From assembly GCA_964649215.1 (NCBI GenBank), contig CAZYOV010000001.1, positions 8,453-72,452 on the forward strand: DNA of 64,000 nucleotides, read 5' to 3'. Source of the stretch: an uncultured Dehalococcoidia bacterium. Lineage in GTDB: Bacteria; Chloroflexota; Dehalococcoidia; SM23-28-2; RBG-16-64-32. This document shows positions 6,394 through 52,939 of this stretch, piece after piece (position 1 is the first letter of the stretch; every line of letters starts with the position of its first letter). Under the pieces are notes generated by a model that was not told the origin of the DNA, ran no database searches, and saw only the letters and a program-made list of their open reading frames with translations. The position numbers were made by a program, and so were the translations under genes.

Positions 6394-6460
6394 TCACTAA
6401 GAATCGGTACGAACGTACTTAGGTTTCCCCATGCGCGGCGGCGGTGAGGACACGGATACT
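6394..6460 (+). promoter_or_regulatory. Conserved bipartite upstream element, copy A
   Basis: TCACTAAGAATCGGTACGAACGTACTTAGGTTTCCCCATGCG-N19-GATACT. Lies 120 nt upstream of CDS 6580. Confidence 0.7.
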
Positions 6461-6579
6461 TGGGGCAGACCCGTGGGCCGTTAGTCCGAATTACGGACAC
6501 GGTGCTCGAACCGGCCAGACGCGCTGGTGTCCGTACGTCTGTGCAAGACGCGGGATAGCGGCGCGGTGCAGCGGACCAT

Positions 6580-7443
6580 ATGAACGAAGGTGACAGGACG
6601 TTGACTCACGGCACTCAGAGGACGGTGACGTATCAGGGCTCTGTAGCGGATACGGAAACTAAGAACGACGACAGGCTTGCCACAATAGTTCAAAACTACG
6701 ACGCGGCGTTCAGGTTCGCCTTCGAGAGTTTCGCTCTGGGCACCACGGACAGCCCCGTACGCGACGGCGAAGTTCTCGAACTCGCACGTCGCGCTGGCAT
6801 CACCAGAGGTAGCCGTGTCCTTGAACCGGGCTCCGGGAGTGGCGGTGTCAGCAGGTTACTGGCCCGCGAGTTGAAGTGCGAGGTGCAGGGCATCGACCTG
6901 ACGCCGTCCCAATTTGAGGAGGCCCAACGACGAGCGGAGGAGGCCGCCCTTCAGGACCTGGTCTCGTGTTCGCTTGGAGATATGGAGTTCTTTGACTACG
7001 AGCAAGAGGCGTATGACGTGGCCATGGACGTGTTTTCTTGGATTCACGTACCCGATTGGCAAAGACTATTTTCGCTGCTACGTGGCGCCTTGAAACCCGG
7101 TGGCAGGATCGTGATGTATGACGCCTTCCTGGCTCCCGCGGCGACAGACGAGACTGCGGCCTCGGTGAGAGACGCGTGGTTGGTGCGGATAGGTGCCGTG
7201 GATGACTGCACAGCGCTGCTTGAGGAGAGCGGATACCGGGTAATCCACACACAGGAATGGGGACGGCAGGTCTTGGACAACTGGAGAGGAGGGCTGGCCA
7301 ATCTAAGGAAGAAAGAAGACGAGTTCATAGGCCGTTTTGGAGAGGATGCGTACAGCTTTTTCGTTGAGACGTCAGCCTGGACAATCGGCGCTTATGAAAG
7401 GGAAGAGCTGACGGCGGCTCAAATAATCGCCGAGAAGACATGA
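6580..7443 (+). CDS. Class I SAM-dependent methyltransferase
   Basis: 287 aa with motif I VLEPGSGSGGVSRLLA and a Rossmann-type methyltransferase pattern. Confidence 0.75.
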   Translation: MNEGDRTLTHGTQRTVTYQGSVADTETKNDDRLATIVQNYDAAFRFAFESFALGTTDSPVRDGEVLELARRAGITRGSRVLEPGSGSGGVSRLLARELKCEVQGIDLTPSQFEEAQRRAEEAALQDLVSCSLGDMEFFDYEQEAYDVAMDVFSWIHVPDWQRLFSLLRGALKPGGRIVMYDAFLAPAATDETAASVRDAWLVRIGAVDDCTALLEESGYRVIHTQEWGRQVLDNWRGGLANLRKKEDEFIGRFGEDAYSFFVETSAWTIGAYEREELTAAQIIAEKT

Positions 7444-7475
7444 CATCGTATCGGAAGACGGAAGGGAGAAAACCA

Positions 7476-7847
7476 ATGTCTGGCAACGCCACAAGGGACC
7501 ATGAGGCCACGCTGCAGGGCCTGGCCACGAATGACCGCACACTCATCACATCACTGCTTGAGATGCAGCTGGAAAACATCGCCGCATCGGGACTGGATCC
7601 GAGGACGCACGCGTTGGTTCGACTAGCCGCCCTCGTGGCGATCGACGCTCCCCCGGCCTCATTCGTCTGGAATGTAGAGATAGCGCTCGAAAGCGGCGTG
7701 AAGCCTGAAGAGATGATCGGGGTACTCGTCGCTTTAGCCCCCACCGTCGGGTTTGCCCGAATCGTAGCTGCCGCCCCGGAGCTTGCCCTGGCGCTGGGTA
7801 TCGACATCGAGGCTTTGGAGGCCGTTAGGGCGGCTGGGGGCTCGTAA
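7476..7847 (+). CDS. Carboxymuconolactone decarboxylase (AhpD-like) family protein
   Basis: CMD-type core DPRTHALVRLAALVAIDAPPASFVWNVEIALESGVKPEEMIGVLVALAPTVG. The ATG at 7476 follows GAAGGGAGA. The ORF-track start at 7440 overlaps the upstream stop. Confidence 0.7.
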   Translation: MSGNATRDHEATLQGLATNDRTLITSLLEMQLENIAASGLDPRTHALVRLAALVAIDAPPASFVWNVEIALESGVKPEEMIGVLVALAPTVGFARIVAAAPELALALGIDIEALEAVRAAGGS

Positions 7848-7947
7848 CCCGAAAACTGCAGGTATTCGTCTCGCGAGCGGCACTACCGGAGAGCATCTTT
7901 TCGCAGACGATCGTACACGTCGTCTGATCAGCGGCAGGAGGTCAAGA

Positions 7948-8205
7948 ATGTTTATGAGGAGAAGGCCACTTCGCAGAGTTGTCGGGGTGGCAGCGGTTGG
8001 AGCAGTGGCTGGAGGCGTCGGCTACTACGCCGGCAAGAAGTCGGGGCAGGCCGAAGAAAGGCAAACTCAACCCTCGGAAAGCGCGCCGTCAGGTGACGAA
8101 GACAAGCTGGAGCAGCTCAAGAAGCTGGGCGAGCTACGGGACGCGGGAACCATAACCGAGCAAGAGTTCGAGCGAGAGAAACAGAAGATATTGGCTGCGG
8201 AGTAA
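7948..8205 (+). CDS. Small single-TM protein with SHOCT domain
   Basis: ATG at 7948 after GGCAGGAGG. TM segment VVGVAAVGAVAGGVGYYAG and SHOCT tail LEQLKKLGELRDAGTITEQEFEREKQKIL. Confidence 0.7.
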   Translation: MFMRRRPLRRVVGVAAVGAVAGGVGYYAGKKSGQAEERQTQPSESAPSGDEDKLEQLKKLGELRDAGTITEQEFEREKQKILAAE

Positions 8206-8218
8206 ATGAGCAGCGCAG

Positions 8219-8285
8219 TCACTAAGAATCGGTACGAACGTACTTAGGTTTCTCCATGCGCGACCGCGCTCGGCACCGTGATACT
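8219..8285 (+). promoter_or_regulatory. Conserved bipartite upstream element, copy B
   Basis: TCACTAAGAATCGGTACGAACGTACTTAGGTTTCTCCATGCG-N19-GATACT. Lies 47 nt upstream of CDS 8332 and is nearly identical to copy A. Confidence 0.7.
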
Positions 8286-8331: not shown

Positions 8332-8838
8332 ATGAGCGAATCGGCCAGTCCCATCAGTTTGATCGCCGCCTTCTACAGGAACGAGACCGACGCGGGTGAA
8401 ATGCTGACACGGCTGAAGCAGATGGACAAGGACGGGACCGTCGATATCATTGACGCTGCTGTGATGGTCAAGGCTGAGGATGGGCGCAAGCTGAAGGTCA
8501 ACGAGACCGCTGAGTTCACCGCCAAAAAGGGCGCCGTACGCGGCGCCCTTGCGGGCGGCGTGCTGGGGATCATCTTCCCACCGGCGATCCTGGCCATGGC
8601 CGCCGTCGGCGCCGCCGCCGGCGCCGCCGTGGGTCACTTCACAGATCAGGGGTTCGATAATAACCTCCTCAAGGAGATCGGCGAGAACCTTCCGCCCGGG
8701 GGCTCCTGCATCGTAGCGGTAGTGGAAGAGACGTGGCTCGCCAAGCTTTCGACCGCGCTTGAGGGCTACGTCGACCTGGCCCGATACGCCCTGGACGCGG
8801 AATCGGCCGCCAAACTGACGGCGTCGCTCGAACGATAG
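8332..8838 (+). CDS. DUF1269-like membrane protein (subtype 2)
   Basis: 168 aa. Two alpha/beta halves flank a Gly/Ala-zipper hairpin (GAVRGALAGGVLGIIFPPAILAMAAVGAAAGAAVGH). Paralogue of 28706 and 52225. Confidence 0.75.
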   Translation: MSESASPISLIAAFYRNETDAGEMLTRLKQMDKDGTVDIIDAAVMVKAEDGRKLKVNETAEFTAKKGAVRGALAGGVLGIIFPPAILAMAAVGAAAGAAVGHFTDQGFDNNLLKEIGENLPPGGSCIVAVVEETWLAKLSTALEGYVDLARYALDAESAAKLTASLER

Positions 8839-9279: not shown

Positions 9280-9346
9280 GTAACGAAGAATCATTAGGAA
9301 CCTACCTAAGTTTCCCCATGCGGCGGCCCGCGCGTAAGACCACACT
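9280..9346 (+). promoter_or_regulatory. Conserved bipartite upstream element, copy C
   Basis: GTAACGAAGAATCATTAGGAACCTACCTAAGTTTCCCCATGCG-N18-CACACT. Lies 53 nt upstream of CDS 9399. Confidence 0.65.
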
Positions 9347-9398: not shown

Positions 9399-9671
9399 AT
9401 GGTAGCGCCAGTATTTCTTTCCACCTTCTGGGACGTCATCTGGGCGGGGTTCATCGTGTTTTTTGTTGTGATCCCCCTCATCATGCTGTGGGTCTTCGCC
9501 CTGGTCGATCTATTCGTTAGGCCCGACATACGGTGGCGGAAGGTCCTGTGGCTGATCTTCATCATCTTCGTTCCTATCTTCGGTGCGATCATCTACCTAC
9601 TCGTCCGACCTCCAGAGGCCGATATCGCACCATACGAAGAACCCGCGAGTGACGCCGTCCCGGACGCCTAG
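9399..9671 (+). CDS. PLDc_N-domain small membrane protein
   Basis: 90 aa with FWDVIWAGFIVFFVVIPLIMLWVFALVDLF...VLWLIFIIFVPIFGAIIYLLVRP. RBS GAAAGGAG. Confidence 0.8.
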   Translation: MVAPVFLSTFWDVIWAGFIVFFVVIPLIMLWVFALVDLFVRPDIRWRKVLWLIFIIFVPIFGAIIYLLVRPPEADIAPYEEPASDAVPDA

Positions 9672-9937
9672 GAACGGGACAGGCGAGAGGGGCTTCCTCG
9701 GACAGGGACGCGTTTCAGCCTGACGGATCGGAGAGTCCCAGGATAGGCACTCGCGCTGCCGGACCACCCTGCCCTGGGCACCCTACGCCGATCCGTGCTG
9801 CGGTTCGAAGATTGGGGGGATAACGTGCGTGCATTGATTGCGGCGACGCTCGTATTGGTTGGAGTGTTGCTCTGGGTCCCGGGCAGTGTCGCGGCGTGGC
9901 AGGAATTGGAAGGTCGTCAGAGTCCCCGGAGGTTGGT

Positions 9938-11365
9938 ATGCGTGGATTCGCAGTCGTAGTTCTGATCATCATCGGCGGGATCTTATCCGTTCCCGGAACC
10001 ATTGGCCTCTGGGTGGAGAGAGAAATAGTTGACGAGGACAACTTCGTGGGGACAGTGAATGAGGCGTTCGAGGACGAGGCTGTCAGGACCGTGCTGGCGG
10101 AACGCCTCACGGACGCGGTGATGGAACGACTGGAGATACGGAGGCGAATAGGCGACGGCCTTGCCGACATACAAAGCCAGCGCCGCGAGGATGCACCAGG
10201 GGATCTGGTGCTGCTGGAGGGGCCTCTGACACTCGCTGCCCGTAACGTGATATTCGAAGTTTCGTTCAGAGTCGTCGATTCAGAGCTCGTCGCGGAGGTG
10301 CGCGACGTTTCGCTGAGAGCTGTGCACCGGGTCGTAACAGCGATCGTCAACAACGACAAGGAGCTCCTCGGCACCGTAGGCGACACTCTCGTGCTCGATC
10401 TCCGGCCGCTGCTGGAGGAGATCGTAAGGGAGATCGGGGGCGACAAGGGCGAAGAGTTGCTCGGTAACCTTGAAAACCTCGATATACCCGAGGACAGAGG
10501 AGTAATCGTCCTGGCGACGAAGTCCGATCTTGAGCCAGTCTGGACCATTGTCCAAGTCTTTGACCGCGGCAATCCCTGGTTGGCTATTGCGGCGGGAGTT
10601 CTGTTAGCCGTAGCTATCGCTATCGCCCGCAGTCGACGAAGGGCGGTGATCGGAGTGGGTATTACGGTCGCCGTGGTAGCCGCGCTAGAGGCCCTGGCCG
10701 TAGCGCAGCCTCTGAGAGAGGTCGCGGTTGACGGGCTTTCCGCGACGGAGTCCGGCCGAACTGCGGCCAAAGTCACCTACGACACCTTGGTTAGGAACTT
10801 TCTGCGCCAGCAGGTCATCGTCATGCTGATAGGGGTGGGGATGGTGGCAGGAGGTTCCCTAGCTATGGACACCGGCCTTCCGAAAGCGATCAGGTCCGCG
10901 TACCGCGGTCAGGCCGACGATCTGGCCGAATGGATCCGCGAGCGCGCATGGGCTCTTCGCATTGCCGGCCTGGGCCTGGGAGGCCTCTTGCTGATCACTT
11001 GGCCCGACCCGTCATCTCGGATGATCGTAACCGTCTTCGTCCTGCTAGCGCTCTATCTGGCCGTACTCACGATCGTCACTAGCGATGCCGCCTGGGCCGT
11101 CGGGATGCGATCACGAGGCGGCGAGCTGTGGGAACGCTACTTCCGTGTAGACGAGGCGACCGTGGCCGGCCCAACTGGGAAACGTACGCTCCCGGGCTGG
11201 GTTGCGGCACGGGCGGCATGGTTCCGCGTCATCGGGATCGCGACCGGGATCATATTCCTCGCCGCCTGGCCGTCAGTCACGTTCGGCCTGGTCGTTGTCA
11301 TAGTTGCCTTGGAGTTCCTCTACCTCGCCGCCATCGACATGATCGTCAATCGCGAATCGGGCTGA
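9938..11365 (+). CDS. Large integral membrane protein, unknown function
   Basis: ATG at 9938 after GGAGG. N-terminal TM, an acidic soluble region, then several C-terminal TM helices. Confidence 0.6.
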   Translation: MRGFAVVVLIIIGGILSVPGTIGLWVEREIVDEDNFVGTVNEAFEDEAVRTVLAERLTDAVMERLEIRRRIGDGLADIQSQRREDAPGDLVLLEGPLTLAARNVIFEVSFRVVDSELVAEVRDVSLRAVHRVVTAIVNNDKELLGTVGDTLVLDLRPLLEEIVREIGGDKGEELLGNLENLDIPEDRGVIVLATKSDLEPVWTIVQVFDRGNPWLAIAAGVLLAVAIAIARSRRRAVIGVGITVAVVAALEALAVAQPLREVAVDGLSATESGRTAAKVTYDTLVRNFLRQQVIVMLIGVGMVAGGSLAMDTGLPKAIRSAYRGQADDLAEWIRERAWALRIAGLGLGGLLLITWPDPSSRMIVTVFVLLALYLAVLTIVTSDAAWAVGMRSRGGELWERYFRVDEATVAGPTGKRTLPGWVAARAAWFRVIGIATGIIFLAAWPSVTFGLVVVIVALEFLYLAAIDMIVNRESG

Positions 11366-11378
11366 GTGGGAGAAGCCG

Positions 11379-12083
11379 ATGCCTGAGGAGCCCTCCTCTC
11401 CGCAGGAAGAACGAAGTGACCAGGACCTGCTGGACGAGATTTTCTCCCGCCTTCCTATGACTGAAGGGAGCTTCGTAGACTTCCTTTCGGCTGTGCTGCT
11501 GTCCGCCGCGGTGGTAGCCTCCGCGTTCAGCGCCTGGCAGGCGTCGCTGTGGAGCGGCGAACAGGCCACCCTGTTCGCAGAAGCCTCCACCGCCCGGCTC
11601 GAATCCAATAGGGAGTCAGGCATCGCCGTCACCAGGCTCAGCTATGATGCGGGCACTTTCGTCGATGCCGCCATAGCGGTCACGGTAGACAACCAGGACG
11701 CACTCGACCTGTTTCGAGAGCGCCTGTTCCGGGACCAGTTCAATGTCTTCGTTGATGAGTGGCTTGAGCTCGATCCGCTCAACAACCCCGACGCTCCCAA
11801 GACCCCGTTCGAGCTTGAAGGAGTCACTGACTCATATTTCGCGGAATCGATTCGGTTGGATGAGATCGCGAACGACAAGTTCAACGTGGGCAAGGAAGCC
11901 AACCGGAACAACGACAACTGGGTCCTTGCCACTGTCATGTTCGCCGGTGTTCTCTTCTTCGCGGGGATATCCACCAAGTTCAAGAGCGCCAGAATCCGGG
12001 CGCTGAGCGTCGCCTTCGCCACAATCGTCCTCGTAGCGGGCGGAGTCTGGCTTCTCAGCATGCCGCGCCTGATCGAGGTGTAG
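11379..12083 (+). CDS. Hypothetical membrane protein
   Basis: 234 aa. One TM near the N-terminus and two near the C-terminus. Follows 9938-11365 after a 13-nt gap. Confidence 0.55.
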   Translation: MPEEPSSPQEERSDQDLLDEIFSRLPMTEGSFVDFLSAVLLSAAVVASAFSAWQASLWSGEQATLFAEASTARLESNRESGIAVTRLSYDAGTFVDAAIAVTVDNQDALDLFRERLFRDQFNVFVDEWLELDPLNNPDAPKTPFELEGVTDSYFAESIRLDEIANDKFNVGKEANRNNDNWVLATVMFAGVLFFAGISTKFKSARIRALSVAFATIVLVAGGVWLLSMPRLIEV

Positions 12084-14090: not shown

Positions 14091-14158
14091 CTACCGAGAA
14101 TTCGGTACGAACGTACTTATCTCTAGCAATGCCCGGAGAGACCGCGGCGGGCTAAAGT
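14091..14158 (+). promoter_or_regulatory. Conserved bipartite upstream element, copy D (upstream of ECF sigma)
   Basis: CTACCGAGAATTCGGTACGAACGTACTTATCTCTAGCAATGCC-N19-TAAAGT. Lies 66 nt upstream of ORF 14224. Confidence 0.65.
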
Positions 14159-14223: not shown

Positions 14224-14859
14224 ATGACACGACTAACCGTGCAAGACAGGGCAGATTCAATGGATAGGACTCGTCATCTGCCGACGTCCAAGCGAGCAGC
14301 CGTCTCAATGACAGAAGGATGCAACGACGAGTCCCAACTGGTGGAGCGCGCTAAGGATATGGAGGAGGACGCCCTCGCCTCGCTCTACTCCATTTACTAC
14401 CCACGGATCTACAACTACGCGTTTTACCAGCTCGGGGACATCCAGGCAGCGGAAGATCTAGCGTCTGACGTTATGCTGAAGGTATTGGAGTCTATCCACG
14501 GGTACCGGTCCAAGGGACCGCCGTTTTCCGCCTGGGTTATCCGCATAGCGCGAAACAAGCTAATCGATCTCCATCGGCGGCGCAAGCGGAATGGAATGGT
14601 GAATCTGTGGGACCCGCCAGTAGCGATTGAATTGGCACCCGAGACTCTGGCGGAGCGGGCCCTTGACCGCGGACAGCTCCAGATCGCCCTAAAGTACCTT
14701 ACCGAAGTTCAGCGGCATGTCATCGTACTCCGGTTCATCGAGGGGTTCGATACTGCCACTGTCGCGCACACCCTGGGCCGAAGCGAGAGCGCCGTCAAGT
14801 CGGCGCAGCGCCGGGCGCTCAGGTCGCTCCGCGCCATCCTCGCGCGGAACGGGCGGTAA
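14224..14859 (+). CDS. ECF-type sigma-70 family RNA polymerase sigma factor
   Basis: Region 2 (IYNYAFYQLGDIQAAEDLASDVMLKVLESIHGY...FSAWVIRIARNKLIDLHRRR) and region 4 (QRHVIVLRFIEGFDTATVAHTLGRSESAVKSAQRRALRSLR). The start could be an internal Met (14260 or 14305). Confidence 0.85.
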   Translation: MTRLTVQDRADSMDRTRHLPTSKRAAVSMTEGCNDESQLVERAKDMEEDALASLYSIYYPRIYNYAFYQLGDIQAAEDLASDVMLKVLESIHGYRSKGPPFSAWVIRIARNKLIDLHRRRKRNGMVNLWDPPVAIELAPETLAERALDRGQLQIALKYLTEVQRHVIVLRFIEGFDTATVAHTLGRSESAVKSAQRRALRSLRAILARNGR

Positions 14860-14931: not shown

Positions 14932-14999
14932 CTACCGAGAATTCATTAGCAATATAACGATCCTTAGCCATGCGTTGACCTCTTAAGACTCCCGATACT
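14932..14999 (+). promoter_or_regulatory. Conserved bipartite upstream element, copy E (degenerate dyad)
   Basis: CTACCGAGAATTCATTAGCAATATAACGATCCTTAGCCATGCG-N19-GATACT. Lies 170 nt upstream of CDS 15169. Confidence 0.55.
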
Positions 15000-15040
15000 G
15001 GGTGGTAGTCGTAGCGGCCCATATCGAGCGCGGGTCGGTA

Positions 15041-15139
15041 TTGCAACAGGATGAAACCGGTAGAGGAGACCTCAAGGCCAAGGGGATCATCACGAACGAG
15101 GAGTTTGAGGTTAAGAAGAAGCTGTTGATCGGGCTCTAA
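15041..15139 (+). other. Orphan SHOCT-tail mini-ORF or gene fragment
   Basis: The frame ends ...GDLKAKGIITNEEFEVKKKLLIGL* (stop 15137-15139). There is no convincing start or RBS, only TTG at 15041. It is a near-duplicate of the fragment at 16454-16531. Confidence 0.3.
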
Positions 15140-18924: not shown

Positions 18925-19004
18925 GACGCACGGAGACAAGCATGACAGCAGACAAGCCGGCAAAGGGGGCTGGGCGCGATCTGTAAGAGCGAAGGAGAAG
19001 CGTC

Positions 19005-19493: not shown

Positions 19494-19532
19494 GGTGGGT
19501 GGTCCGTCCGCCACCAGAGACGGAGGTGCAGA

Positions 19533-39980: not shown

Positions 39981-39996
39981 TAGGAAGCGGGACTGG

Positions 39997-40980
39997 ATGG
40001 AGCAGACCATGGAGGAGGCGCCGTCAAGAGCACCGTATCCCGACATGGTCTGGATCCCAGGCGGCACCTTTCGCATGGGCTCTAATGACCACTACACGGA
40101 GGAGGCCCCCGTCCACAGCGTGGCCGTCGACGGCTTCTGGATGGACCGCACCACGGTGACGAATAGGGACTTTCAGAAGTTCGTGGACGCGACTGGGTAC
40201 GTAACGGTCGCTGAGCGGTCACCAAACCCGGAGGACCATCCCGGCGCGCCAGCTGAGAACCTGGTGGCGGGCTCGCTCGCGTTCAGGAAGACGCCCGGCC
40301 CTGTAGATCTTCGCCACCTGAGCCAGTGGTGGGTCTGGACTCCTGGCGCGAGCTGGCGTCATCCTGAGGGTCCGCAAAGCTCTATCGCTGGTCGGATGGG
40401 TCACCCGGTCGTGCATGTCGCCTGCGATGACGCACAGGCCTACGCGATCTGGACGGGGAAGGCCTTAGCTACCGAAGCGGAGTGGGAGCGCGCCGCCCGA
40501 GGCGGGCTGGAAGGCGCTGAGTTCGTCTGGGGTGATGAGCGGGTACCGGACGGCAAGCCTCCGGCCAACTGGTGGCAGGGCGAGTTTCCCTGGCAGAACA
40601 GCTTGGACGACGGGTTCGAGGGCTCCGCGCCGGTGGGCTCTTTTCCGCCGAACGGGTTCGGCCTCTACGACATGGCCGGCAACGTGTGGGAGTGGACGAG
40701 CGGCTGGTACACGACCCGGCATCCAGAGGACGCCGATGACCCGTGCTGCGTGCCGAGCAATCCGCGAGGGGGAATGGAGGACGAGAGCTACGACCCAGCG
40801 CAACCACAGTTCAAGATTCCCCGGAAGGTGATCAAGGGTGGCTCGTTCCTCTGCGCCGACAACTATTGCCAGCGGTACAGACCGGCGGCGCGGCGCCCGC
40901 AGATGATCGACACCGGCATGAGCCACATCGGCTTTCGATGTATCGTTCGGCCGGACTCGGCAGCCGATGTCTCGCGCTGA
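39997..40980 (+). CDS. Formylglycine-generating enzyme (FGE/SUMF1 family)
   Basis: 327 aa, paralogue of 27127-28113 (MVWIPGGTFRMGS...KGGSFLCADNYCQRYRPAARRPQMIDTGMSHIGFRC). Starts 17 nt after the sulfatase stop. Confidence 0.9.
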   Translation: MEQTMEEAPSRAPYPDMVWIPGGTFRMGSNDHYTEEAPVHSVAVDGFWMDRTTVTNRDFQKFVDATGYVTVAERSPNPEDHPGAPAENLVAGSLAFRKTPGPVDLRHLSQWWVWTPGASWRHPEGPQSSIAGRMGHPVVHVACDDAQAYAIWTGKALATEAEWERAARGGLEGAEFVWGDERVPDGKPPANWWQGEFPWQNSLDDGFEGSAPVGSFPPNGFGLYDMAGNVWEWTSGWYTTRHPEDADDPCCVPSNPRGGMEDESYDPAQPQFKIPRKVIKGGSFLCADNYCQRYRPAARRPQMIDTGMSHIGFRCIVRPDSAADVSR

Positions 40981-43608: not shown

Positions 43609-44262
43609 TTAATCTAGAAGCCCGAGCCTGGCCGCGTATGCGGCCGCCCCAGCCCGTCGGGAGAGCCCGAGCTTGCTGAGGATGTGGGCCACATGATTGC
43701 GGGCCGTATGCTCGCTGATGAAGAGCGCCTCCGCTATCTCCTTGTTGGTGTGCCCATCGGCGACGAGTCGCAGGACTTCCTTCTCCCTAACGGAAAGCGG
43801 ATCGTCGGCCTCGGGGTGGGCCGACGATAGCTCCACCAGCTTCTGGAGCACCGGCTCCGTGACCGAGGTGTCGAGCAGGGACTCGCCTCGACCGACGGTA
43901 TGGAGGGCTTCGATGAGACGACCGCGGCCCACGTTCTTGATGAGGTAGCCGGAGGCGCCGGCGAGGAGGGCCGCAAGCACGGTTTCCCGTTCGCTATAGG
44001 AGGAGAACATGAGCACTCGGGTATCGGGTAGAGAGCTCCGAATCTCGCGGCAGGCTTGGACACCACCTGTGTCCTCGCCTTCCCCAAGACGCACGTCCAA
44101 GAGCACGACATCCGGCTTCAGAGCGATTGCCCTCTCTACAGCCTCCTCCGCTCCGCCAGCCTCCCCCACCACTTCAATCGTGTCGTCACCGTCCAGCACG
44201 GCTCGAAGACCAGCTCGAACTACCTCATGGTCATCGACCACCAGCACCCTCAGCGCCATCAC
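43609..44262 (-). CDS. NarL/FixJ-family response regulator (REC plus LuxR HTH)
   Basis: 217 aa with VLVVDDHEVVRAGL...DVVLLDVRL and EKEVLRLVADGHTNKEIAEALFISEHTARNHVAHILSKLG. Confidence 0.9.
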   Translation of the reverse strand: MMALRVLVVDDHEVVRAGLRAVLDGDDTIEVVGEAGGAEEAVERAIALKPDVVLLDVRLGEGEDTGGVQACREIRSSLPDTRVLMFSSYSERETVLAALLAGASGYLIKNVGRGRLIEALHTVGRGESLLDTSVTEPVLQKLVELSSAHPEADDPLSVREKEVLRLVADGHTNKEIAEALFISEHTARNHVAHILSKLGLSRRAGAAAYAARLGLLD

Positions 44263-45536
44263 GCCTCTCCCGTCGGCAGAACCGCCGTTACGCTAGTCCC
44301 CTGGCCCGGAACGCTCTCTACGATCAACTCTCCTCCAATCTCCTCAGCTCGCTGCCGGATGTTGAGCAGTCCCCGGCCAGACCCACCATCGTCAACGAAG
44401 CCGACACCGTCGTCGCACACCTCCAGGCGGACGAGACGGTCATCAAAGACCAGCCGAATGCCGATTCTGGACGCTCCGGCATGGCGGTAGGCGTTCGCCA
44501 GCGCCTCCTGGGCGATGCGGTACATCGCTGTCTTCGTGGCGGCTGGCAGCCCCGGCTCCTCACCAAGCACCGTCAGCCGCACCTCAAGCCCCGAGACCGC
44601 CGTAAATTCGCGCACCTGGCTCTTCAGCGACTCTGCCAGGCTCGCGTCGCCCCTGAGCAGGGGCTTGAGGTCGAATATGTAGTGCCGCACCTCTAGCAGG
44701 GTCTGCTTGGCCAGAGTTACGAGGCGTGCCAGCCGACGACCCAGATCGGGCTCACCTGGCGCCATCTCGGCCGCTGTCTCGAGGTTCAACGACAGCATAT
44801 AGATCGACTGGGCGACGCCGTCGTGGATCTCCCTCGCGAGGCGGCCGCGCTCCTGCTCGGCGACCAGACGCTCGCGCTCCTCCTGAAGCTGGACGCTCTC
44901 TTCCAGCGCCTGTTGCGCGCGCTCTCGCTCCTCGGCCAGCTCTCGGTTTAGCCAGCCGAAGAACTGGACCACGAACGCTACCAGGAACGGTATCGCCACA
45001 AACACCACAAAGTTGTTGAGTTCGTCGCTCAGCCAAGGCCCGTCCACGCCTTCCCCAGCCGTTGCCAGAATGACGACGTAGGCTCCGACAAATCCCAGTG
45101 CCAGCATGAGGTTGCCCCGCAGGCTCAGGATGGACGACGGGACCAGCAGCGCAGAGACCGCATACAGGTAATAGGGACTATCCCATCCTCCACTCTGAAA
45201 GACGATGACGAGAGCGAGGGCGACATCGACCAGACTCAACGCTAGGATGTCACTGACCTGACCGCCCTGGAGTTCGACCAGTGGCCTTAGCGCAGGCCTG
45301 AAAAGCGGCACGTAGAGAGTAACGGCCGCGGTCTGGGCAAACGCCAGGAGCAGAAGCGCGGGCTCGCGCGCGACATTGACCTCCGGCAGGATGTCGAGGA
45401 AGACGATGATGACCGCGACGCCCCATGCAGCCCAGCGAAGCGAAAACAAGAACAGCACGATACGAGTGGGCCGTTCTTGCCGCCACCACCGGCGCAGTGG
45501 CGCTACCGGGGAGGTGGGGGCGCGGTCGCTAGTCAC
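44259..45536 (-). CDS. Membrane sensor histidine kinase (HisKA_3/NarX-DesK type)
   Basis: 425 aa. About 5 N-terminal TM helices, H-box LAREIHDGVAQSIY and an HATPase_c domain. 4-nt overlap with the regulator gene. Confidence 0.85.
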   Translation of the reverse strand: MTSDRAPTSPVAPLRRWWRQERPTRIVLFLFSLRWAAWGVAVIIVFLDILPEVNVAREPALLLLAFAQTAAVTLYVPLFRPALRPLVELQGGQVSDILALSLVDVALALVIVFQSGGWDSPYYLYAVSALLVPSSILSLRGNLMLALGFVGAYVVILATAGEGVDGPWLSDELNNFVVFVAIPFLVAFVVQFFGWLNRELAEERERAQQALEESVQLQEERERLVAEQERGRLAREIHDGVAQSIYMLSLNLETAAEMAPGEPDLGRRLARLVTLAKQTLLEVRHYIFDLKPLLRGDASLAESLKSQVREFTAVSGLEVRLTVLGEEPGLPAATKTAMYRIAQEALANAYRHAGASRIGIRLVFDDRLVRLEVCDDGVGFVDDGGSGRGLLNIRQRAEEIGGELIVESVPGQGTSVTAVLPTGEA

Positions 45537-46093: not shown

Positions 46094-46335
46094 TCTACCC
46101 TCGCGAACCCTGGCGGCTGTTGACCTCGAAGCCGTCTGTCCACCAGGGCTGTCGCGACAACGGCGGCTGCGGCCGGTGTCCCCGCAGGCGGCACTCCCAG
46201 GGCATCACGACACGACGTGTCCAGCGGCCACTCATCAAGTGTGTCAGTTCGCAGATGGTCTGCCACAGGCGAGGATTAGTGATATTCCTACTTATTGTTC
46301 GGTAGCAGAACAGTCGGAGGGCCATTATTAGAGGA

Positions 46336-47448: not shown

Positions 47449-47592
47449 GTTTCTCCTCCCTTTCGCTAAGTCAGTCCCGTCGGCTCTTCGTTGGTACTCC
47501 ACGGTCATCTTCCGCCGGTCGTGTGCGGACGCCGAGGCTGCACTGTGGACTAATCCTCTGCTGCGATCTCCTCCTCCTTAGAGCCCGCCAAG

Positions 47593-47739
47593 TCATCCCT
47601 CGTCAGGGTCCGTTTCGCGTCGCTGCTGAAGCCGCTCGCGTATGACCCGAATGGTCTCGCTGCCGCGTTGCGGGGCGGCCGGCGAGCCAAGACTTGCGCC
47701 CAACGCCATGCCAAGCATCAGACCAATGACGAACCGCAT
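47593..47739 (-). CDS. YtxH-like small membrane protein (48 aa, not in ORF track)
   Basis: AGGAGGCAGATT-ATG gives MRFVIGLMLGMALGASLGSPAAPQRGSETIRVIRERLQQRRETDPDEG*. The plus-strand track ORF 47642-47866 is its antisense shadow. Confidence 0.55.
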   Translation of the reverse strand: MRFVIGLMLGMALGASLGSPAAPQRGSETIRVIRERLQQRRETDPDEG

Positions 47740-47787
47740 AATCTGCCTCCTAGCTGCACCCCATCGTTCACGGCGGGAGCCAGATAG

Positions 47788-47855
47788 AGTATCTCAGGCC
47801 GCGACGGCCCCGCGCATTGCAGAAACTAGGTACGTTCGTAACGATTTCTCGTTAC
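47788..47855 (-). promoter_or_regulatory. Conserved bipartite upstream element, copy K (closest to consensus)
   Basis: Minus strand GTAACGAGAAATCGTTACGAACGTACCTAGTTTCTGCAATGCG-N19-GATACT. Lies 49 nt upstream of the ATG at 47739. Confidence 0.7.
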
Positions 47856-47906
47856 CTCTCATGTAGCGGAGTAGGGTGAGAAACGATAGAGCTCGGTGGC
47901 CGCGTG

Positions 47907-50015
47907 TCAGGCGTTTCGAGGGGGCACATCGGGGTTCTTCCGCGCCTTCAAATCGGAGTACAGCAGCGTTGAGGCCGTGAATGCGAACGGGAGAAGCATC
48001 AACGCGTACAAAGCCGCGTTCACCGTGTAGACCATATCGGTAACTGGCGGCGAAGCGAACAGAAGAAGAGTCATGGCTATGATCGGGCCCGGCAGTACGA
48101 CCACGATTATGATGGCGGTCAAAATTGCGAAGGTACGCCACCAGTTGCCCCTGACAGCCTCAGCGCTGGCGCTCAGCGACTCCTTCGCATTGCGGTCATC
48201 AAGCACTACCGCCTGTCCTACGAACCCCCAGGCGACGATCCGGTGGATCGCCCAAGGCGTCCCAATGATGGTGAAGGCGAGGACGACAATGTGGAACAGG
48301 GAGCGGAGGTTCGCACCCAGCAGCGTCCACAACCGGAGCAAGACGACACGGTAAGCGTCCCTGAAGCTGGCCCTCCGGCCGGCATCGATCTCCCCAAGCG
48401 CAGCGAAGATCGCGCCGCCCAAGATGATGGCGCTGAAGAGGGCCTGCGCGCCTCCCAAGGAGAACACCAGCAGCGACGTGGCCCCTTGGCTGGGTATGTG
48501 GTCATCGAGGCGAAGTTGTGCCTGAACGGCCGTGGCGGCGATGCCCAGTGGGATGAAGACGACCCCGATGGGCACGAACACTCGTAGATTTCTCAGATAC
48601 ATGATGGCAGCGTCTCTCCCAATCTGGCTCAACGCGCGCCGTCGCTGGAGCAGCCCCTTCCTCGGCGGCGCATCTGCCTCCACGGGCGCGCCACCGAATA
48701 CCCGCCTGGGTACACCCACTACCAAGAATCCGACAGTGGCCAGGAAGAAGAGCCCCATGGCCGCGCCAACCGGCGCCGGCCACTGCACCATCGCGTTCAA
48801 AAGGGACGAGCCGAAGCCGATGATCGCACAGATCGGCCCCAAGGGATCGATCCCTATAGCCTCGCCTTCGGGGATCTTCTCGCTGTAACTGCGGAGATCC
48901 TGCTCCCAGGTGAACGGCTTCTCCCATTTCTCCTTTTGCGCCGGCCCCGTCGGGCCGTCAAAGTGCTTACCCTGCAACTCGCCCCAGCGGCCCTCGAATT
49001 CGATCCAAGCGAAAGGGCTGTCAGCATCGGTCACCTCGGGAGGCACCAGCTGTGCCTCGAGCGGCACTCGCCTCAGCGGATCCGACGAGCCCTCACATCC
49101 GAACCCGGCGCCTTCACGGGCCACTCCTATGTAAATCCCCGGCTGGAAATAGTTGGCGTGCGACCCCCTGGCGACATAGACGGCCGGTCGACCCTCCTCC
49201 TTCTTCACCTTCCCTTCATCCCAGTCGGCGATTTCGCCCCCCTCGTGCTGCGACAACGCCACCCGAACAGGCTCTTGCTGCAACGCCTCGCTGGCTGAAC
49301 CGGCGTCGAAGGCGAGCTGGATCATCTCCCAGTCGCCCTCGTGAGTGTTGTTCCAGTCGTTGAAGTAGTAGAAGAACCAGTACTGCAGGGCGAACCCATC
49401 GAATCCTGGTTCCGTCTGGATATGAGCGTAGGCCACAGGTGGATTGCCGGCCTTCACCTCCTGGTAGTCCCGATCGTACGTGCAGCCCGGCCGCCTTGGG
49501 TTGCCCGGGAAGTCAAGAAAGAAGCCGATGTCTTTGTCGAAGACGTCTTGCGCACCAGGCCCCTCCGTCACGACCGGCTCGTCTGGGGCGTCCTCCCTGA
49601 GCGTCACTTCTGCGTTGTCCAGGACAATCTCGACCGGCGCCGGGTCGAACGGATCGCCATCACTATCGCACTCCTCGTCTTGCAGTCCGAGATAGACGAT
49701 GGGAGCGTACTTGGCGACGAGCTGCTCTTCGTCTGTTTGCTGTCGGAGCTCTCCAAGCCCTGGAACGCCTGGCGCGTGGTCCGCGCGCCCAGATTCCGCG
49801 CTCACAGCGCCACCGTCCGAAACAGCGAGGAGTAGCAACGCTGCAAACGCGCAGGCGTACAGGGTGAGGCGAAGAAGAGTCACTCGGTTACAGCTGCATA
49901 GGTCTTCATTTGCGTCAAGGCACCTCTGGTCCTCTCGGCCCGTCTGCCGCTCGGGCTGTCGCGGCGCAGGCGAGGTACTGACCGGCGAGTACGCGGAGCT
50001 CTCGCTCGAGGTCAC
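47907..50015 (-). CDS. Large secreted-domain plus polytopic membrane protein (Vps62-like HEGDWE motif)
   Basis: 702-aa ORF. The N-terminal half has YWFFYYFNDWNNTHEGDWEMIQL, reminiscent of Vps62-type domains. The C-terminal half has about 8 TM helices. The start is uncertain: ATG at 50015 overlaps the upstream gene by 100 nt, and GTG at 49883 lacks an RBS. Confidence 0.55.
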   Translation of the reverse strand: MTSSESSAYSPVSTSPAPRQPERQTGREDQRCLDANEDLCSCNRVTLLRLTLYACAFAALLLLAVSDGGAVSAESGRADHAPGVPGLGELRQQTDEEQLVAKYAPIVYLGLQDEECDSDGDPFDPAPVEIVLDNAEVTLREDAPDEPVVTEGPGAQDVFDKDIGFFLDFPGNPRRPGCTYDRDYQEVKAGNPPVAYAHIQTEPGFDGFALQYWFFYYFNDWNNTHEGDWEMIQLAFDAGSASEALQQEPVRVALSQHEGGEIADWDEGKVKKEEGRPAVYVARGSHANYFQPGIYIGVAREGAGFGCEGSSDPLRRVPLEAQLVPPEVTDADSPFAWIEFEGRWGELQGKHFDGPTGPAQKEKWEKPFTWEQDLRSYSEKIPEGEAIGIDPLGPICAIIGFGSSLLNAMVQWPAPVGAAMGLFFLATVGFLVVGVPRRVFGGAPVEADAPPRKGLLQRRRALSQIGRDAAIMYLRNLRVFVPIGVVFIPLGIAATAVQAQLRLDDHIPSQGATSLLVFSLGGAQALFSAIILGGAIFAALGEIDAGRRASFRDAYRVVLLRLWTLLGANLRSLFHIVVLAFTIIGTPWAIHRIVAWGFVGQAVVLDDRNAKESLSASAEAVRGNWWRTFAILTAIIIVVVLPGPIIAMTLLLFASPPVTDMVYTVNAALYALMLLPFAFTASTLLYSDLKARKNPDVPPRNA

Positions 50016-50355: not shown

Positions 50356-50577
50356 TCAGCCGAGCAGCTTCGTCTTCTGCCTGGCGAACTCCTCGTCGGT
50401 GATGACCCCCTCATTGCGAAGGTCGGCCAGCTTCCTGAGCTCAACCACTCGAACAATCGCAGAAAAGTTGCTCCACATGACCAGTTGAACTAGCGGCGTG
50501 AGCAATAACAGCAGGAGCGGTACGACAACGAAGAATATGATCATGACCGACCAGAAGGTCGAGAGGTCAAGGAACAT
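50356..50577 (-). CDS. Small membrane protein with SHOCT domain
   Basis: 73 aa. TM FWSVMIIFFVVVPLLLLLLTPLV and SHOCT tail LRKLADLRNEGVITDEEFARQKTKLLG. RBS TAGGAGGA. Confidence 0.7.
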   Translation of the reverse strand: MFLDLSTFWSVMIIFFVVVPLLLLLLTPLVQLVMWSNFSAIVRVVELRKLADLRNEGVITDEEFARQKTKLLG

Positions 50578-50635: not shown

Positions 50636-50702
50636 AGTGTGCCACCCTCGTAATGTCTTCGCATGGCAGAGGCTAATGATTTTCGTACCTATTTCTAGGT
50701 AG
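50636..50702 (-). promoter_or_regulatory. Conserved bipartite upstream element, copy L
   Basis: Minus strand CTACCTAGAAATAGGTACGAAAATCATTAGCCTCTGCCATGCG-N18-CACACT. Lies 59 nt upstream of the ATG at 50577. Confidence 0.65.
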
Positions 50703-50736: not shown

Positions 50737-52122
50737 TCACCTACGAGAGGGCGAATCACCGTGATCCTCCCCAGCGGACGGTTGGTCGCCGAGAAGCCTG
50801 GCGCCGCGCGGCTGCTTGATCTTGGTTTCCGGATCGCCGGTGATGAGGCGCACCCGTCGGTCCGCGAAGAAATAGTTCCGAATCCACGAAAGAAATACGA
50901 ACACTTTCGCTTGGAATCCCACCAGGAGCAAAACGTGCAGGCCGCCCCACGCCAACCAGCCGAGAAATCCACCCAGTTCGATCTTGCCGACGGACACGAC
51001 GGCCCGCCCCCGGCCGATCGTGGCCGTGGAGCCCTTGTCCTTGTAGCTGAACGCCGGCCTGTCCCGCGGGCCGACCCCCTGGAGGCCTCGACGAATGATC
51101 CCGGCCACGAACCGGCCGGCCTGGATCGCGCCCTGGGCGACGCCCGGGACTGGTTCGCCCGTCCTGGAGTCGACGACGTGCGCCGCGTCGCCGATGACGA
51201 ACACATCGGGGTAGCCGGGAATCGACATGTCGGATCCGACGATGACGCGGCCTGCCCGATCAAGCTCGATGCCCAGCGTCTTGGCGATCGGCTGGCCCTG
51301 TACGCCCGCGGCCCAGAATACGTTCTCGGCGAGCACGCGGCGCTCGCCTATCACGACTCCATCAGCGCCAGCTGAAGTTACGCGCGTATTGAGCCATACC
51401 TCAACCCCCATCTCTTCCAGATCGCGCCGCGCTAGCTCGCTCATCGCCTCCGGCATGGCCGCGAGCAGCCGTCCCGATCCCTGCATCAGGATCACGCGGG
51501 CAGTGCTGGTATCGACGAATCGGAAGTCCTTCGGAATCGAGCGCGAGGCTGTCTCCATGATCGCGCCGGCAAGCTCAACGCCCGTCGGTCCGCCCCCTAC
51601 CACAATGAACGTCAACTTGGCCCGGCGAGACGCGTCGTCCGCCTCCCACTCCGCTTCCTCGAAGGCCAGCAGTACGCGCCTGCGAATTTCGATCGCGTCG
51701 TCTAGTGTCTTTAGGCCGGGCGCGAACTCCTGATACTCGGGGTGCCCAAAGTAGGACTGCGTTGCACCAGTTGCCAGCACGAGATAGTCGTAGCGGGCCT
51801 CAGCTCGAGGGCCTCTGACAAGTTTGGCCTGGAGGTCAACACCCGTGACTCTCGCCAAGACAACCTGCACGTTCTTCTGACCTCGAAGAATCTTGCGGAG
51901 GGGCGCGGCCACATCAGACGGAGCGAGCTCGGCGGTGGCCACCTGGTAGAGAAGCGGCTGAAATAGGTGGTAGTTGTGGTGGTCTACCAGCGTAATGTCC
52001 ACTGGCGCGCGCCTAAGACCACGGACGACCTCCAGCCCGCCGAAGCCACCTCCGACGACGATAACCCTCGGTCGCTCTCCAGCCTCCGCGGCGTTCCGCT
52101 CAGGCACGGCCGACCCTACCAT
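50737..52122 (-). CDS. ndh: Type II NADH dehydrogenase (NDH-2)
   Basis: 461 aa. Two dinucleotide folds (RVIVVGGGFGGLEV, TFIVVGGGPTGVELAG) and a typical NDH-2 C-terminal membrane-association region. Confidence 0.9.
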   Translation of the reverse strand: MVGSAVPERNAAEAGERPRVIVVGGGFGGLEVVRGLRRAPVDITLVDHHNYHLFQPLLYQVATAELAPSDVAAPLRKILRGQKNVQVVLARVTGVDLQAKLVRGPRAEARYDYLVLATGATQSYFGHPEYQEFAPGLKTLDDAIEIRRRVLLAFEEAEWEADDASRRAKLTFIVVGGGPTGVELAGAIMETASRSIPKDFRFVDTSTARVILMQGSGRLLAAMPEAMSELARRDLEEMGVEVWLNTRVTSAGADGVVIGERRVLAENVFWAAGVQGQPIAKTLGIELDRAGRVIVGSDMSIPGYPDVFVIGDAAHVVDSRTGEPVPGVAQGAIQAGRFVAGIIRRGLQGVGPRDRPAFSYKDKGSTATIGRGRAVVSVGKIELGGFLGWLAWGGLHVLLLVGFQAKVFVFLSWIRNYFFADRRVRLITGDPETKIKQPRGARLLGDQPSAGEDHGDSPSRR

Positions 52123-52150
52123 CTGAAAGGCTGACCATCTTTACCGACCT

Positions 52151-52203
52151 CCTAAGAGACGGTGACGACCCTCTTGATGCCGGCACGCATCGATACTCTT
52201 AGG
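52151..52203 (-). promoter_or_regulatory. Nested inverted repeat in the ndh leader that includes part of the only strong SD
   Basis: Minus strand CCTAAGAG...GATGC-GTGCCG-GCATC...CTCTTAGG-AGG. The 3' arm overlaps the SD (T)AGGAGG. Confidence 0.3.
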
Positions 52204-52224
52204 GTGTCAGGCTCGGGAGTCGGT

Positions 52225-52752
52225 TCAGGCGTCATCGGCTCCTCGGTTAGCGTCGCCGGTTGCGGCTGCGTCCTCGATCTGCGCGGCTTCTTTCGCGCTG
52301 AAACCGTGTCGGAGGAATTTTCCCGGGTAAGTCTCCATGGTCTCCACGATCAGCTCCACAAACTGCGGCGCGGCCAGCGCCACCACGGCGGCGTTCCCCG
52401 GCTTCAGGCTGCTGCCAAGATCCTTCATCGCTCCGGTCTTGATGCCCGTGTCACGCAGCCTGCCCCAGGCACCGCCAATCAGCCCGCCGGCGAGCGCCGA
52501 GGCGATCAGGCTAGGCGGGAAGAACAGGCCCATGACGCCGGCGATCACGGCGCCGCGCCGGGCGCCCTTGCCTGTGGTGACTTCCCGCGTCTCCTTGATG
52601 TGCAGCTTACCGTCAGCGTCCTTCGTCACCATCGCCGCGTCGGCCAGTGTGATGGTGGAGGCGCGATGCATCCTCTGGAGCGCGTCGAGGATTGTCTTGG
52701 CGGCGTCCTCATCCTTATAGATGGAGGCCATTAGCTCAAGCTGGTTGCCCAT
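52225..52752 (-). CDS. DUF1269-like membrane protein (subtype 2)
   Basis: 175 aa with MASIYKDEDAAKTILDAL...GARRGAVIAGVMGLFFPPSLIASALAGGLIGGAWG. RBS TAGGAG. Confidence 0.75.
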   Translation of the reverse strand: MGNQLELMASIYKDEDAAKTILDALQRMHRASTITLADAAMVTKDADGKLHIKETREVTTGKGARRGAVIAGVMGLFFPPSLIASALAGGLIGGAWGRLRDTGIKTGAMKDLGSSLKPGNAAVVALAAPQFVELIVETMETYPGKFLRHGFSAKEAAQIEDAAATGDANRGADDA

Positions 52753-52871
52753 GACGATGCTCCTATCCGGGTGAATTCGATCTTGTGAACGTGCCTAATC
52801 TTGACGGGTGCGGGGCCGCCAGCTTACGCTGTCGTGCTGACCTACCCCCATGAACACCACAAACACAATAG

Positions 52872-52939
52872 ATTGTCGCGTGCCGTAGGAGCCTGGCACA
52901 CGGCAGAGATTAGGTATTCCCGTAACGATTTCTCAGTAG
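52872..52939 (-). promoter_or_regulatory. Conserved bipartite upstream element, copy M
   Basis: Minus strand CTACTGAGAAATCGTTACGGGAATACCTAATCTCTGCCGTGTG-N19-GACAAT. Lies 120 nt upstream of the ATG at 52752. Confidence 0.6.

Follow-up and report, generated by a model that had tools for sequence, protein, structure and literature searches.

A stereotyped upstream element with NarL-like heptamers as a candidate activator-dependent promoter in an uncultured Chloroflexota lineage

1. Introduction

In Mycobacterium, the NarL-family regulator DosR/DevR binds a 20-bp palindrome, controls dozens of small stress genes and is autoregulated. The NtcA promoters of cyanobacteria, which are of class II and have no -35 box, associate a GTA-N8-TAC site with a TAN3T hexamer located about 22 nt away. 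The heptamer recognised by NarL is TACYYMT. The NarL output domain binds as a dimer to inverted heptamers separated by 2 bp (7-2-7), as in the engineered site TACCCCT-AA-AGGGGTA, and the 7-2-7 sites from which it activates are located at about -40 to -49 (PMC4549865). The PAS-LuxR activators of Streptomyces bind a 16-bp palindrome, also of 7-2-7 geometry, in the -35 region (PMC9774167). The DNA considered here is a stretch of 64,000 nucleotides from an uncultured Dehalococcoidia bacterium (contig CAZYOV010000001.1, positions 8,453 to 72,452 of the forward strand), hereafter called the window, in which an element of 68 bases fronts at least 14 operons. Sequence comparisons suggest that each copy is probably a complete, stereotyped and activator-dependent promoter and that the copies together mark a regulon in a marine lineage of uncultured Chloroflexota. 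The likeliest regulator would be a protein combining PAS domains with a LuxR-type DNA-binding domain (PAS-LuxR).

2. Copies of the Element in the Window

The element consists of a 43-nt conserved block, a spacer and a hexamer. Its copies in the window are the following:

6393-6460, plus strand: copy 1, with the block at 6393-6435, then the spacer and the hexamer GATACT at 6455-6460
8218-8285, plus strand: copy 2, hexamer GATACT
9280-9346, plus strand: copy 3, short spacer, hexamer CACACT
14091-14158, plus strand: copy 4, hexamer TAAAGT
14932-14999, plus strand: copy 5, hexamer GATACT
28271-28337, plus strand: copy 6, short spacer, hexamer CATCAT
34831-34898, plus strand: copy 7, hexamer CATACT
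35467-35534, plus strand: copy 8, hexamer CACACT
36999-37066, minus strand: copy 9, hexamer GATACT
38377-38443, plus strand: copy 10, short spacer, hexamer GAAAAT
47788-47855, minus strand: copy 11, hexamer GATACT, the best match to the consensus
50636-50702, minus strand: copy 12, short spacer, hexamer CACACT
52872-52939, minus strand: copy 13, hexamer GACAAT
46238-46305, minus strand: copy 14, hexamer CACACT, diverged

The first 13 copies had been listed in the original prediction, which was made from the bare sequence. Printing and alignment of the sequence located all of them at the places and on the strands given, and a profile hidden Markov model (nhmmer) built on the 13 copies recovers every one (E = 1e-18 to 4e-11). 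Only small details of the coordinates had to be corrected: the copies said to begin at 6394 and 8219 begin at 6393 and 8218, which leaves them without a deletion, and the hexamer of the copy at 28271 ends at 28337. Copy 14 is additional (E = 1.4e-4) and was confirmed by a rescan with a broader model. In this copy, which is conserved in the related locus L024, the GCCATG box is one base shorter and the spacer compensates. A 26-nt core, searched with at most three mismatches, is found five times in the window and never in 100 shuffled versions of it. The spacer lengths announced for the 13 copies, 19 nt in nine and 18 nt in four, hold when counted from the end of GCCATGCG, and the second and sixth bases of the hexamer (A2 and T6) are indeed invariant in the window.

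All 14 copies lie outside credible genes. As about 85% of the window is coding, according to a rough call based on third-codon-position G+C content (GC3) with crude gene limits, the probability that all of them are intergenic by chance is about 0.15^14. A start codon is found 37-144 nt 3' of each copy and in the sense direction, except for the copy at 34831. The statement that each copy is intergenic and points at the adjacent gene is thus right as to location for all copies, while the copy at 34831 has no clear open reading frame (ORF) behind it.

Two observations concern particular pairs of copies. Copies 9 and 11 and the YtxH-like mini-genes that follow them (36780-37080 and 47580-47870) share 90% nucleotide identity over 281 nt, which points to a recent duplication of the whole promoter-gene unit. 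Furthermore, the leaders behind the copies at 14932 and 34831 (14999-15060 and 34899-34935) have the 12-mer AGCGCGGGTCGG in common, which is absent from the orthologue in L018.

3. Occurrence in Relatives

When 185,579 species genomes were scanned with a degenerate pattern, one relevant match was obtained, the Chloroflexota metagenome-assembled genome (MAG) JADFRV01 (isolate B8D1T2); six further genome matches behave like chance. The genomes scanned include this relative, of 88-95% nucleotide identity, and not the genome of the window itself, and an exact look-up of the ECF sigma protein of the window in an assembly index gave no match. Three loci of this MAG are 78-95% identical to parts of the window and bear nine copies of the element. 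A scan of metagenomes added 30 contigs, most of them with several copies. More distant relatives were searched for with the DUF1269 protein encoded at 8332-8838, and six long contigs whose homologues are 55-67% identical to it were fetched, each relative locus covering about 20 kb. In the loci L040, L041, L042, L044 and L045, diverged copies precede the orthologues of the DUF1269 and PLDc_N genes as well as further genes. The element of L043 is truncated: the heptamers described in Section 4 are lost, and the box at positions 36-43 and its N19 distance to the hexamer are kept. The near set and the first three distant loci provide the 65 distinct copies on which the counts given below are based.

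The genes that carry the element in orthologous positions across the MAG, the metagenome contigs and the distant relatives encode DUF1269, PLDc_N, YtxH-like and SHOCT proteins. A scan of relatives had been proposed as a check of the original prediction; it finds the element upstream of orthologous genes down to about 60% protein identity. By sequence comparison, the element is a conserved and position-stable feature of a Chloroflexota lineage, beyond a single genome.

Some copies have a history of their own. In L013, a weak copy (1199-1269, minus strand, E = 8e-5) precedes a gene of the MBL-fold family that is 92% identical to the one at 29373-30524 of the window, and the counterpart of this site in the window (29207-29372) shows no detectable copy. 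Promoter copies are thus gained or lost between close relatives. The intergenic region of L040 that separates divergent PAS-LuxR and DUF1269 genes (9813-9951) contains two tandem blocks at a distance of 72 bp. No -10-like hexamer accompanies the upstream block, which may be an extra regulator site or serve the autoregulation of the divergent regulator gene.

4. Anatomy of the Conserved Block

Position 1 of the element is the first base of the 43-nt block, whose consensus is CTAACGAGAAATCGTTAC. The information profile reveals seven invariant bases (T2, A7, A10, T12, A17, T24 and G41) and five that are nearly so (A25, C26, T28, A29 and T40). Conservation starts abruptly at the 5' edge, and the flanks of the copies are unrelated. 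Positions 1-35 of the block have a G+C content of 38%, the spacer, which has no conserved sequence, 68%, and the genome 62%.

When every 7-nt window of the block, on both strands, is compared with the window 2-8, its closest relatives are 11-17 inverted and 24-30 forward, both with r = 0.79, the next best reaching 0.53. These three heptamers are H1 (2-8, forward, TAMCKAG), H2 (11-17, inverted, ATCGKTA) and H3 (24-30, forward, TACYTAG), the latter located 22 bp downstream of H1 in the same orientation; their common consensus is TAMCKAK. A position weight matrix (PWM) made from the three heptamers scores 7.0-9.2 on average at their own windows vs -12.4 +/- 4.2 over all 256 windows. Since both the window comparison and the PWM scores single out the same three windows, the block can be read as an array of TAMCKAK heptamers. 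H1 and H2 form a 16-bp dyad of 7-2-7 geometry, so that the block has the repeated half-sites, one pair of them in 7-2-7 arrangement, expected of NarL/FixJ/LuxR-type arrays.

A fourth, degenerate and weak inverted heptamer is possible at 33-39. Among the 256 windows, this one takes 12th place, and its score in the distant set, where it reads TCGCTAG or TCCTGAG, is +0.6. If it is counted, it would give a second 7-2-7 site located 22 bp, i.e., two helical turns, from the first. The suggestion that the long block is an operator or activator site thus resolves into three, possibly four, NarL-like heptamers. A reading of the block as direct repeats with an 11-bp period, as bound by OmpR, PhoB or SARP-like proteins, was rejected because no consistent period was found.

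The 3' end of the block, at positions 36-43, is occupied by the box GCCATGCG; in distant relatives, it is replaced by GCGACGCG, AGGACGCG or GTGATGCC.

5. Hexamer, -35 Position and Downstream Starts

The hexamer, of consensus SAYACT, lies at positions 62/63 to 67/68. A NANNNT pattern starts at position 62/63 in 64 of the 65 distinct copies vs about 3% at other offsets. GATACT (21 copies), CACACT (11), CATCAT (5) and CATACT (4) are its commonest forms. A -10 element with invariant A2 and T6 characterises sigma factors of groups 1-3 and not the extracytoplasmic function (ECF) sigma factors; both bases are conserved here, as in a -10 hexamer of the sigma-70 type. The promoter geometry initially proposed for the element is therefore supported, the hexamer being locked in position in copies from several genomes and the genes following in the sense direction.

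The -35 position is less conventional. The box GCCATGCG does occupy it, as had been suggested, but it does not resemble TTGACA: the best match to a TTGACA-like hexamer at 16-19 nt spacing reaches at most 3/6 in 60 of the 65 copies. A scan with the standard sigma-70 consensus gives no call at these sites. Matching the invariant TG at 40-41 to the TG of TTGACA would give a canonical spacer of 17-18 bp; the hexamer so defined, ATGCGC, matches TTGACA poorly and loses its T in relatives. Since GCCATGCG is unlike TTGACA and gives way to GCGACGCG in relatives, the promoter probably depends on an activator and lacks a true -35 box.

Of 61 copies, 55 are followed within 200 nt by a Shine-Dalgarno sequence with a start codon and an ORF of at least 40 aa, and the distances peak sharply at 36-60 nt; the antisense control gives 23 of 57 and no mode. 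Such distances are compatible with a transcription start 5-9 nt after the -10 hexamer.

Other promoter types fit less well. The bases expected of an ECF promoter are rarely found (AAC at 3-5 in 17/65 copies, CGT at 22-24 in 12/65, both in 5/65), and an ECF promoter placed within the block, as GTAAC-N16-CGTAC or GAAC-N16-ATGCG, was rejected since its key bases are not conserved. Sigma-54, sigma-32-like and SigB-like readings, examined by eye, were discarded as misfits in spacing or conservation, none of them explaining the locked NANNNT.

6. Candidate Regulators

Several genes of the window could encode a protein acting on the element:

979-3627, plus strand: candidate regulator of 882 aa with multiple PAS domains and a C-terminal GerE (LuxR/NarL-type) helix-turn-helix (HTH), from Pfam matches
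3679-6332, plus strand: tandem duplicate of this PAS-LuxR gene, split into 3679-5025 (PAS only) and 5037-6332 (PAS and GerE)
43609-45536, minus strand: alternative candidate, made of a NarL-type response regulator (REC and GerE, 43609-44262) and a HisKA_3 kinase (44259-45536), downstream of copy 14
14224-14859, plus strand: ECF-type sigma factor gene, a member of the candidate regulon, behind copy 4

The two PAS-LuxR copies share 80% amino acid identity in their N-terminal part and 68% in their C-terminal part, the last 110 aa being 94.5% identical. The split duplicate, which ends 61 nt before copy 1 of the element, could be either a pseudogene or a naturally split pair of sensor and DNA-binding proteins. 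The HTH of the PAS-LuxR protein is closest to the solved DNA-binding domains of LiaR, VraR, DevR and NarL.

The association of such genes with the element extends to the relatives. A gene encoding PAS domains and GerE adjoins the element, in the same direction, in L001, L019 and L030. In other loci, such genes are divergent from the DUF1269 gene, with two each in L040, L041 and L045 and one each in L042 and L043. The linkage is thus found in the window and in eight other loci, including five of the six distant ones. As it is kept while the orientation changes, it provides good comparative evidence for a functional tie. The gene families found behind the element in the window are clustered around the PAS-LuxR gene in the distant loci.

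Besides these candidates, the window encodes a MarR protein and a hybrid kinase-OmpR protein. The latter (54568-56892, minus strand) is a single chain of 774 aa with PAS, HisKA, HATPase, receiver and OmpR-type DNA-binding domains, and a lone receiver gene is adjacent to it (53944-54417).

7. Proposed Mechanism and Alternatives

If transcription is taken to begin some 7 nt past the hexamer, a position p of the element becomes about p-75 relative to the start. The centre of the H1/H2 dyad would then be near -65.5, H3 at about -51 to -45 and the centre of the putative H3/H4 dyad near -43.5. In the mechanism that we propose, the PAS domains would sense a signal, upon which dimers of the PAS-LuxR (GerE-type) protein would occupy the heptamers and recruit RNA polymerase to a promoter with a usable -10 hexamer but no -35 box. 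The proximal site could contact region 4 of sigma or the alpha subunit in the fashion of a class II activator. The signal would thereby switch on the whole regulon, i.e., small membrane proteins, sulfatases and their maturases, sulfate permeases, the ECF sigma factor and a two-component system. Such activation would explain why the spacer is fixed in length but free in sequence, why TTGACA is missing, why the orientation is strict and why conservation sets in so abruptly at the 5' edge. The motif, its geometry, orientation and conservation and the neighbouring regulator gene are directly observed; binding, the point where transcription starts, the sign of the control and the choice of the regulator are parts of the model.

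Several points weigh against this mechanism. The locus L044 has the element and no PAS-LuxR gene within 10 kb, and the recognition helices show no obvious change correlated with the half-sites across relatives. The window holds a second GerE-type regulator (43609), behind the weak copy 14. Conservation of the box at 36-43 goes deeper than that of some heptamer positions, which a degenerate fourth half-site explains only partly. The hexamer begins with G or C in 61 of the 65 copies and with T in four, which is unusual for a housekeeping -10. Lastly, many of the 65 copies are mutually orthologous, so that counts made on them overstate their independence.

There is room for an alternative sigma factor, given the atypical first base of the hexamer and a box at 36-43 that is so deeply conserved. 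A dedicated one, either a stress factor of group 2 or 3 or the ECF factor encoded at 14224, with or without an activator, could read GCCATGCG/GCGACGCG as its -35 and SAYACT as its -10, but this is unlikely. It would agree with the location of the box at the -35 position, with the preservation of the box and of its N19 distance to the hexamer in L043, where the heptamers are absent, and with a hexamer whose first base differs from that of TATAAT. Moreover, the ECF sigma gene has the element upstream, as autoregulated sigma genes do. However, a sigma factor would leave unexplained the three position-specific heptamers spread over 30 bp upstream, and no group-2/3 sigma gene is visible within the window. 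As for the ECF factor, the invariance of A2 and T6 points to sigma factors of groups 1-3 and GTAAC-N16-CGTAC is present in only 5/65 copies; it is unlikely to be the sigma reading the element.

The anatomy of the promoter would be the same if the binder were the response regulator 43609-44262, paired with the kinase 44259-45536 in an autoregulated two-component regulon like that of DosR. Its operon is preceded by the diverged copy at 46238-46305, as positive autoregulation predicts. The best NCBIfam matches of its GerE HTH are MadR, MctR and NarL, and NarL-family proteins bind 7-2-7 heptamers (PMC4549865). This assignment nevertheless seems quite improbable: the copy before its operon is the weakest of the window, and no homologue of the response regulator was found in the fetched relative loci (about 20 kb each), whereas PAS-LuxR genes lie beside the element in nine loci.

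That the block is instead the operator of a repressor, which would cover -75 to -32 and block RNA polymerase until a signal arrives, is very unlikely. There is no recognisable -35 box to occlude, the clearest sites, near -65 and -48, are upstream of usual repressor sites, and in no copy does the element extend over the -10 or the start site. The extension of the conserved block up to the -35 position would suit such a repressor, as would the repression by a NarL-family protein known at frdA (PMC4549865).

We consider it highly improbable that the element is a structured RNA (5'-untranslated-region regulator or small RNA) or a hairpin-forming DNA repeat. Single copies do look like hairpins (TAACGA-GAAA-TCGTTA), changes between some pairs of copies appear to compensate each other and several spacers contain G+C-rich inverted repeats. 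However, no Rfam family reaches its gathering score, none matches the element even at E <= 1, and RNAalifold predicts no pair from 42 copies. In these 42 copies, the first dyad is paired in 70.2% of cells vs 73.9% in column shuffles, 498 of 500 shuffles doing at least as well; pairing of the second dyad is marginal. The DNA upstream of the block shows no conserved sequence that could act as a promoter and is often too short for one. The impression of compensating changes was rejected by counting on 42-50 copies, and the inverted repeats of the spacers are explained by composition since folding of the segment centred on the spacer (36-64) gives a mean z of -0.35. The dyads noticed in the original prediction are thus real as the symmetry of a protein site and not as hairpins.

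Lastly, a mobile or selfish repeat landing in intergenic DNA, akin to miniature inverted-repeat transposable elements (MITEs) or repetitive extragenic palindromes (REPs), can practically be dismissed: the density of 14 copies in 64 kb would fit it, but no copy lies in credible genes, orientation and distance to genes are strict, neither terminal inverted repeats nor flanking duplications were found, the flanks are unrelated and the copies occupy orthologous positions in the MAG, the metagenome contigs and the distant relatives, which indicates that the element is not mobile.

8. Genes Located behind the Element

The genes that activation by the PAS-LuxR protein would place in one regulon are listed below, coordinates given singly being gene starts:

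Copy 1, plus strand: methyltransferase 6580, CMD 7440, SHOCT 7783
Copy 2, plus strand: DUF1269 8332-8838
Copy 3, plus strand: PLDc_N 9399-9671, and probably the co-directional genes up to 14046 (K+-channel-like 12150, DUF389 12982)
Copy 4, plus strand: ECF-type sigma factor 14224-14859
Copy 5, plus strand, first part of a 13-kb co-directional string: SHOCT mini-ORF 15002, 15169, DUF1269 15418 and 19005
Copy 5, plus strand, continuation of the string: sulfatases 16567, 19533 and 22136, radical-SAM/SPASM 24525, SfLAP 25889, FGE 27127
Copy 6, plus strand: PLDc_N 28389, DUF1269 28706, and probably MBL-fold 29373 and the SulP-STAS permeases 30768 and 32491
Copy 7, plus strand: about 570 nt (34899-35466) with no convincing ORF
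Copy 8, plus strand: acidic lipoprotein-like 35572, DUF1328 36210
Copy 9, minus strand: YtxH-like gene of 53 aa starting at 36948
Copy 10, plus strand: sulfatase 38490, FGE 39997
Copy 11, minus strand: YtxH-like gene of 48 aa starting at 47739
Copy 12, minus strand: SHOCT 50356-50577
Copy 13, minus strand: DUF1269 52225-52752, and probably a pyridine-nucleotide disulphide oxidoreductase 50737-52122
Copy 14, minus strand: membrane protein starting at 46093 (only a sub-threshold SH3_3 match), kinase 44259-45536, response regulator 43609-44262

A Pfam check upholds the labels initially given to these genes from their translations (DUF1269, PLDc_N, SHOCT, CMD, methyltransferase, ECF sigma, sulfatase, FGE and DUF1328), except that both YtxH matches are below the cut-off. 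Many of the candidate targets are small membrane proteins: DUF1269 four times, directly or as the second gene, PLDc_N twice, SHOCT three or four times, YtxH-like proteins twice and DUF1328; DUF389 and the channel-like protein probably belong to the same group. A second set consists of sulfatases, with three of them in the 13-kb string together with a maturase, SfLAP and FGE, and a further sulfatase-FGE pair; the two SulP-STAS permeases are probably also among the targets. The remaining ones are the methyltransferase-CMD operon, the ECF sigma factor, the two-component system and the oxidoreductase. Relatives add DUF1622, DUF1254/DUF1214, Abhydrolase_9 and an acidic membrane protein. The names of these families suggest a role of the regulon in stress.

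The 34899-35466 region behind copy 7 gave no convincing ORF and no Rfam match. In the metagenome contig L018, the orthologous promoter (5737) precedes a gene for a DUF1254/DUF1214 protein of 522 aa. The window has probably lost this gene, or encodes an unrecognised small product.

The sulfatase regions (16567-28113 and 38490-40980) place both sulfatase maturation systems side by side, with FGE at 27127 and 39997 and the radical-SAM/SPASM protein at 24525; this latter bears a C-terminal SEC-C motif, and DUF1269 genes are interleaved with the sulfatases. The regions 47907-50015 (minus strand) and 9896-12083 (plus strand) contain large ORFs of 702, 489 and 234 aa that either match no family of Pfam or NCBIfam or show just a faint Vps62 match. 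Homologues of these ORFs recur beside the element in L040, L041 and L045, as genes of 689-711 aa.

9. Novelty and Meaning

The element had been put forward as belonging to no described class. Rfam has no such family, and a search of the literature on DUF1269 regulons, on Chloroflexi promoter motifs and on the motif itself brought no relevant description. The regulon and the class of promoter therefore appear undescribed. It should be emphasized that the kind of system is well known: activator-dependent promoters whose NarL/LuxR-type heptamers mark a regulon are conventional in mechanism.

Almost nothing is known about the control of transcription in uncultured Chloroflexota. With about 40 bits, the element is a marker of high information that could serve to detect the regulon in MAGs and metagenomes, and it comes with a candidate sensor-regulator. 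The grouping of DUF1269, PLDc_N, SHOCT, YtxH-like, DUF1328, DUF389, DUF1622 and DUF1254/1214 proteins with sulfatases, maturases and sulfate permeases gives a testable hint about their functions. Furthermore, a stereotyped distance between heptamers and -10, without -35, makes a clean system for studies of LuxR-type activation.

A broader idea, which we put forward tentatively, is that the element belongs to a general stress or dormancy system of this Chloroflexota lineage, in which a multi-PAS/LuxR sensor and a non-housekeeping sigma factor reading SAYACT and GCCATGCG would control dozens of operons. Such a system would be built unlike sigma-B, sigma-S, EcfG/PhyR or DosR and would couple small membrane proteins to genes for sulfatases and sulfate transport.

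10. Comparison with Known Systems

NarL and NarP of E. coli offer a close likeness as regards the sites, with inverted 7-nt half-sites 2 bp apart, a GerE-type dimer and extra single heptamers nearby. The resemblance of TAMCKAK to the NarL heptamer TACYYMT is a lead only, and the half-site sequences are not identical. Here, the clear dyad is near -65 and not -44, the likely regulator is a one-component PAS protein rather than a phosphorylated response regulator, and, unlike those of NarL targets, the whole promoter is stereotyped down to its distance from the block to the -10.

As regards the regulator, there is a close likeness with PimM and PteF, the PAS-LuxR proteins of Streptomyces, which also associate a PAS sensor with a LuxR-type HTH and whose 16-bp, palindrome-like 7-2-7 site is tied to the -35 region. 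CTAACGAGAAATCGTTAC has the same 16-bp 7-2-7 geometry, but its sequence is unrelated to the PimM-type operator CTVGGGAWWTCCCBAG and its dyad lies near -65. The Chloroflexota proteins belong to another phylum, have several PAS domains (357 to 882 aa) and face an array of three or four half-sites; their candidate targets are membrane and stress proteins and sulfatases instead of polyketide clusters.

The DosR regulon is similar in its GerE-type regulator, its many small proteins of unknown function and a long box fixed upstream of the -10. It differs in its motif and in that DosR is a response regulator, and no homology between the two sets of targets is known. As for the NtcA promoters of cyanobacteria, their activator is of the CRP/FNR and not of the GerE family, and binds one dyad, in a much shorter site, instead of an array. 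They nevertheless share with the element the same overall design: a conserved activator site, a fixed spacer of free sequence and a -10 of the TAnnnT type, with no -35 consensus.

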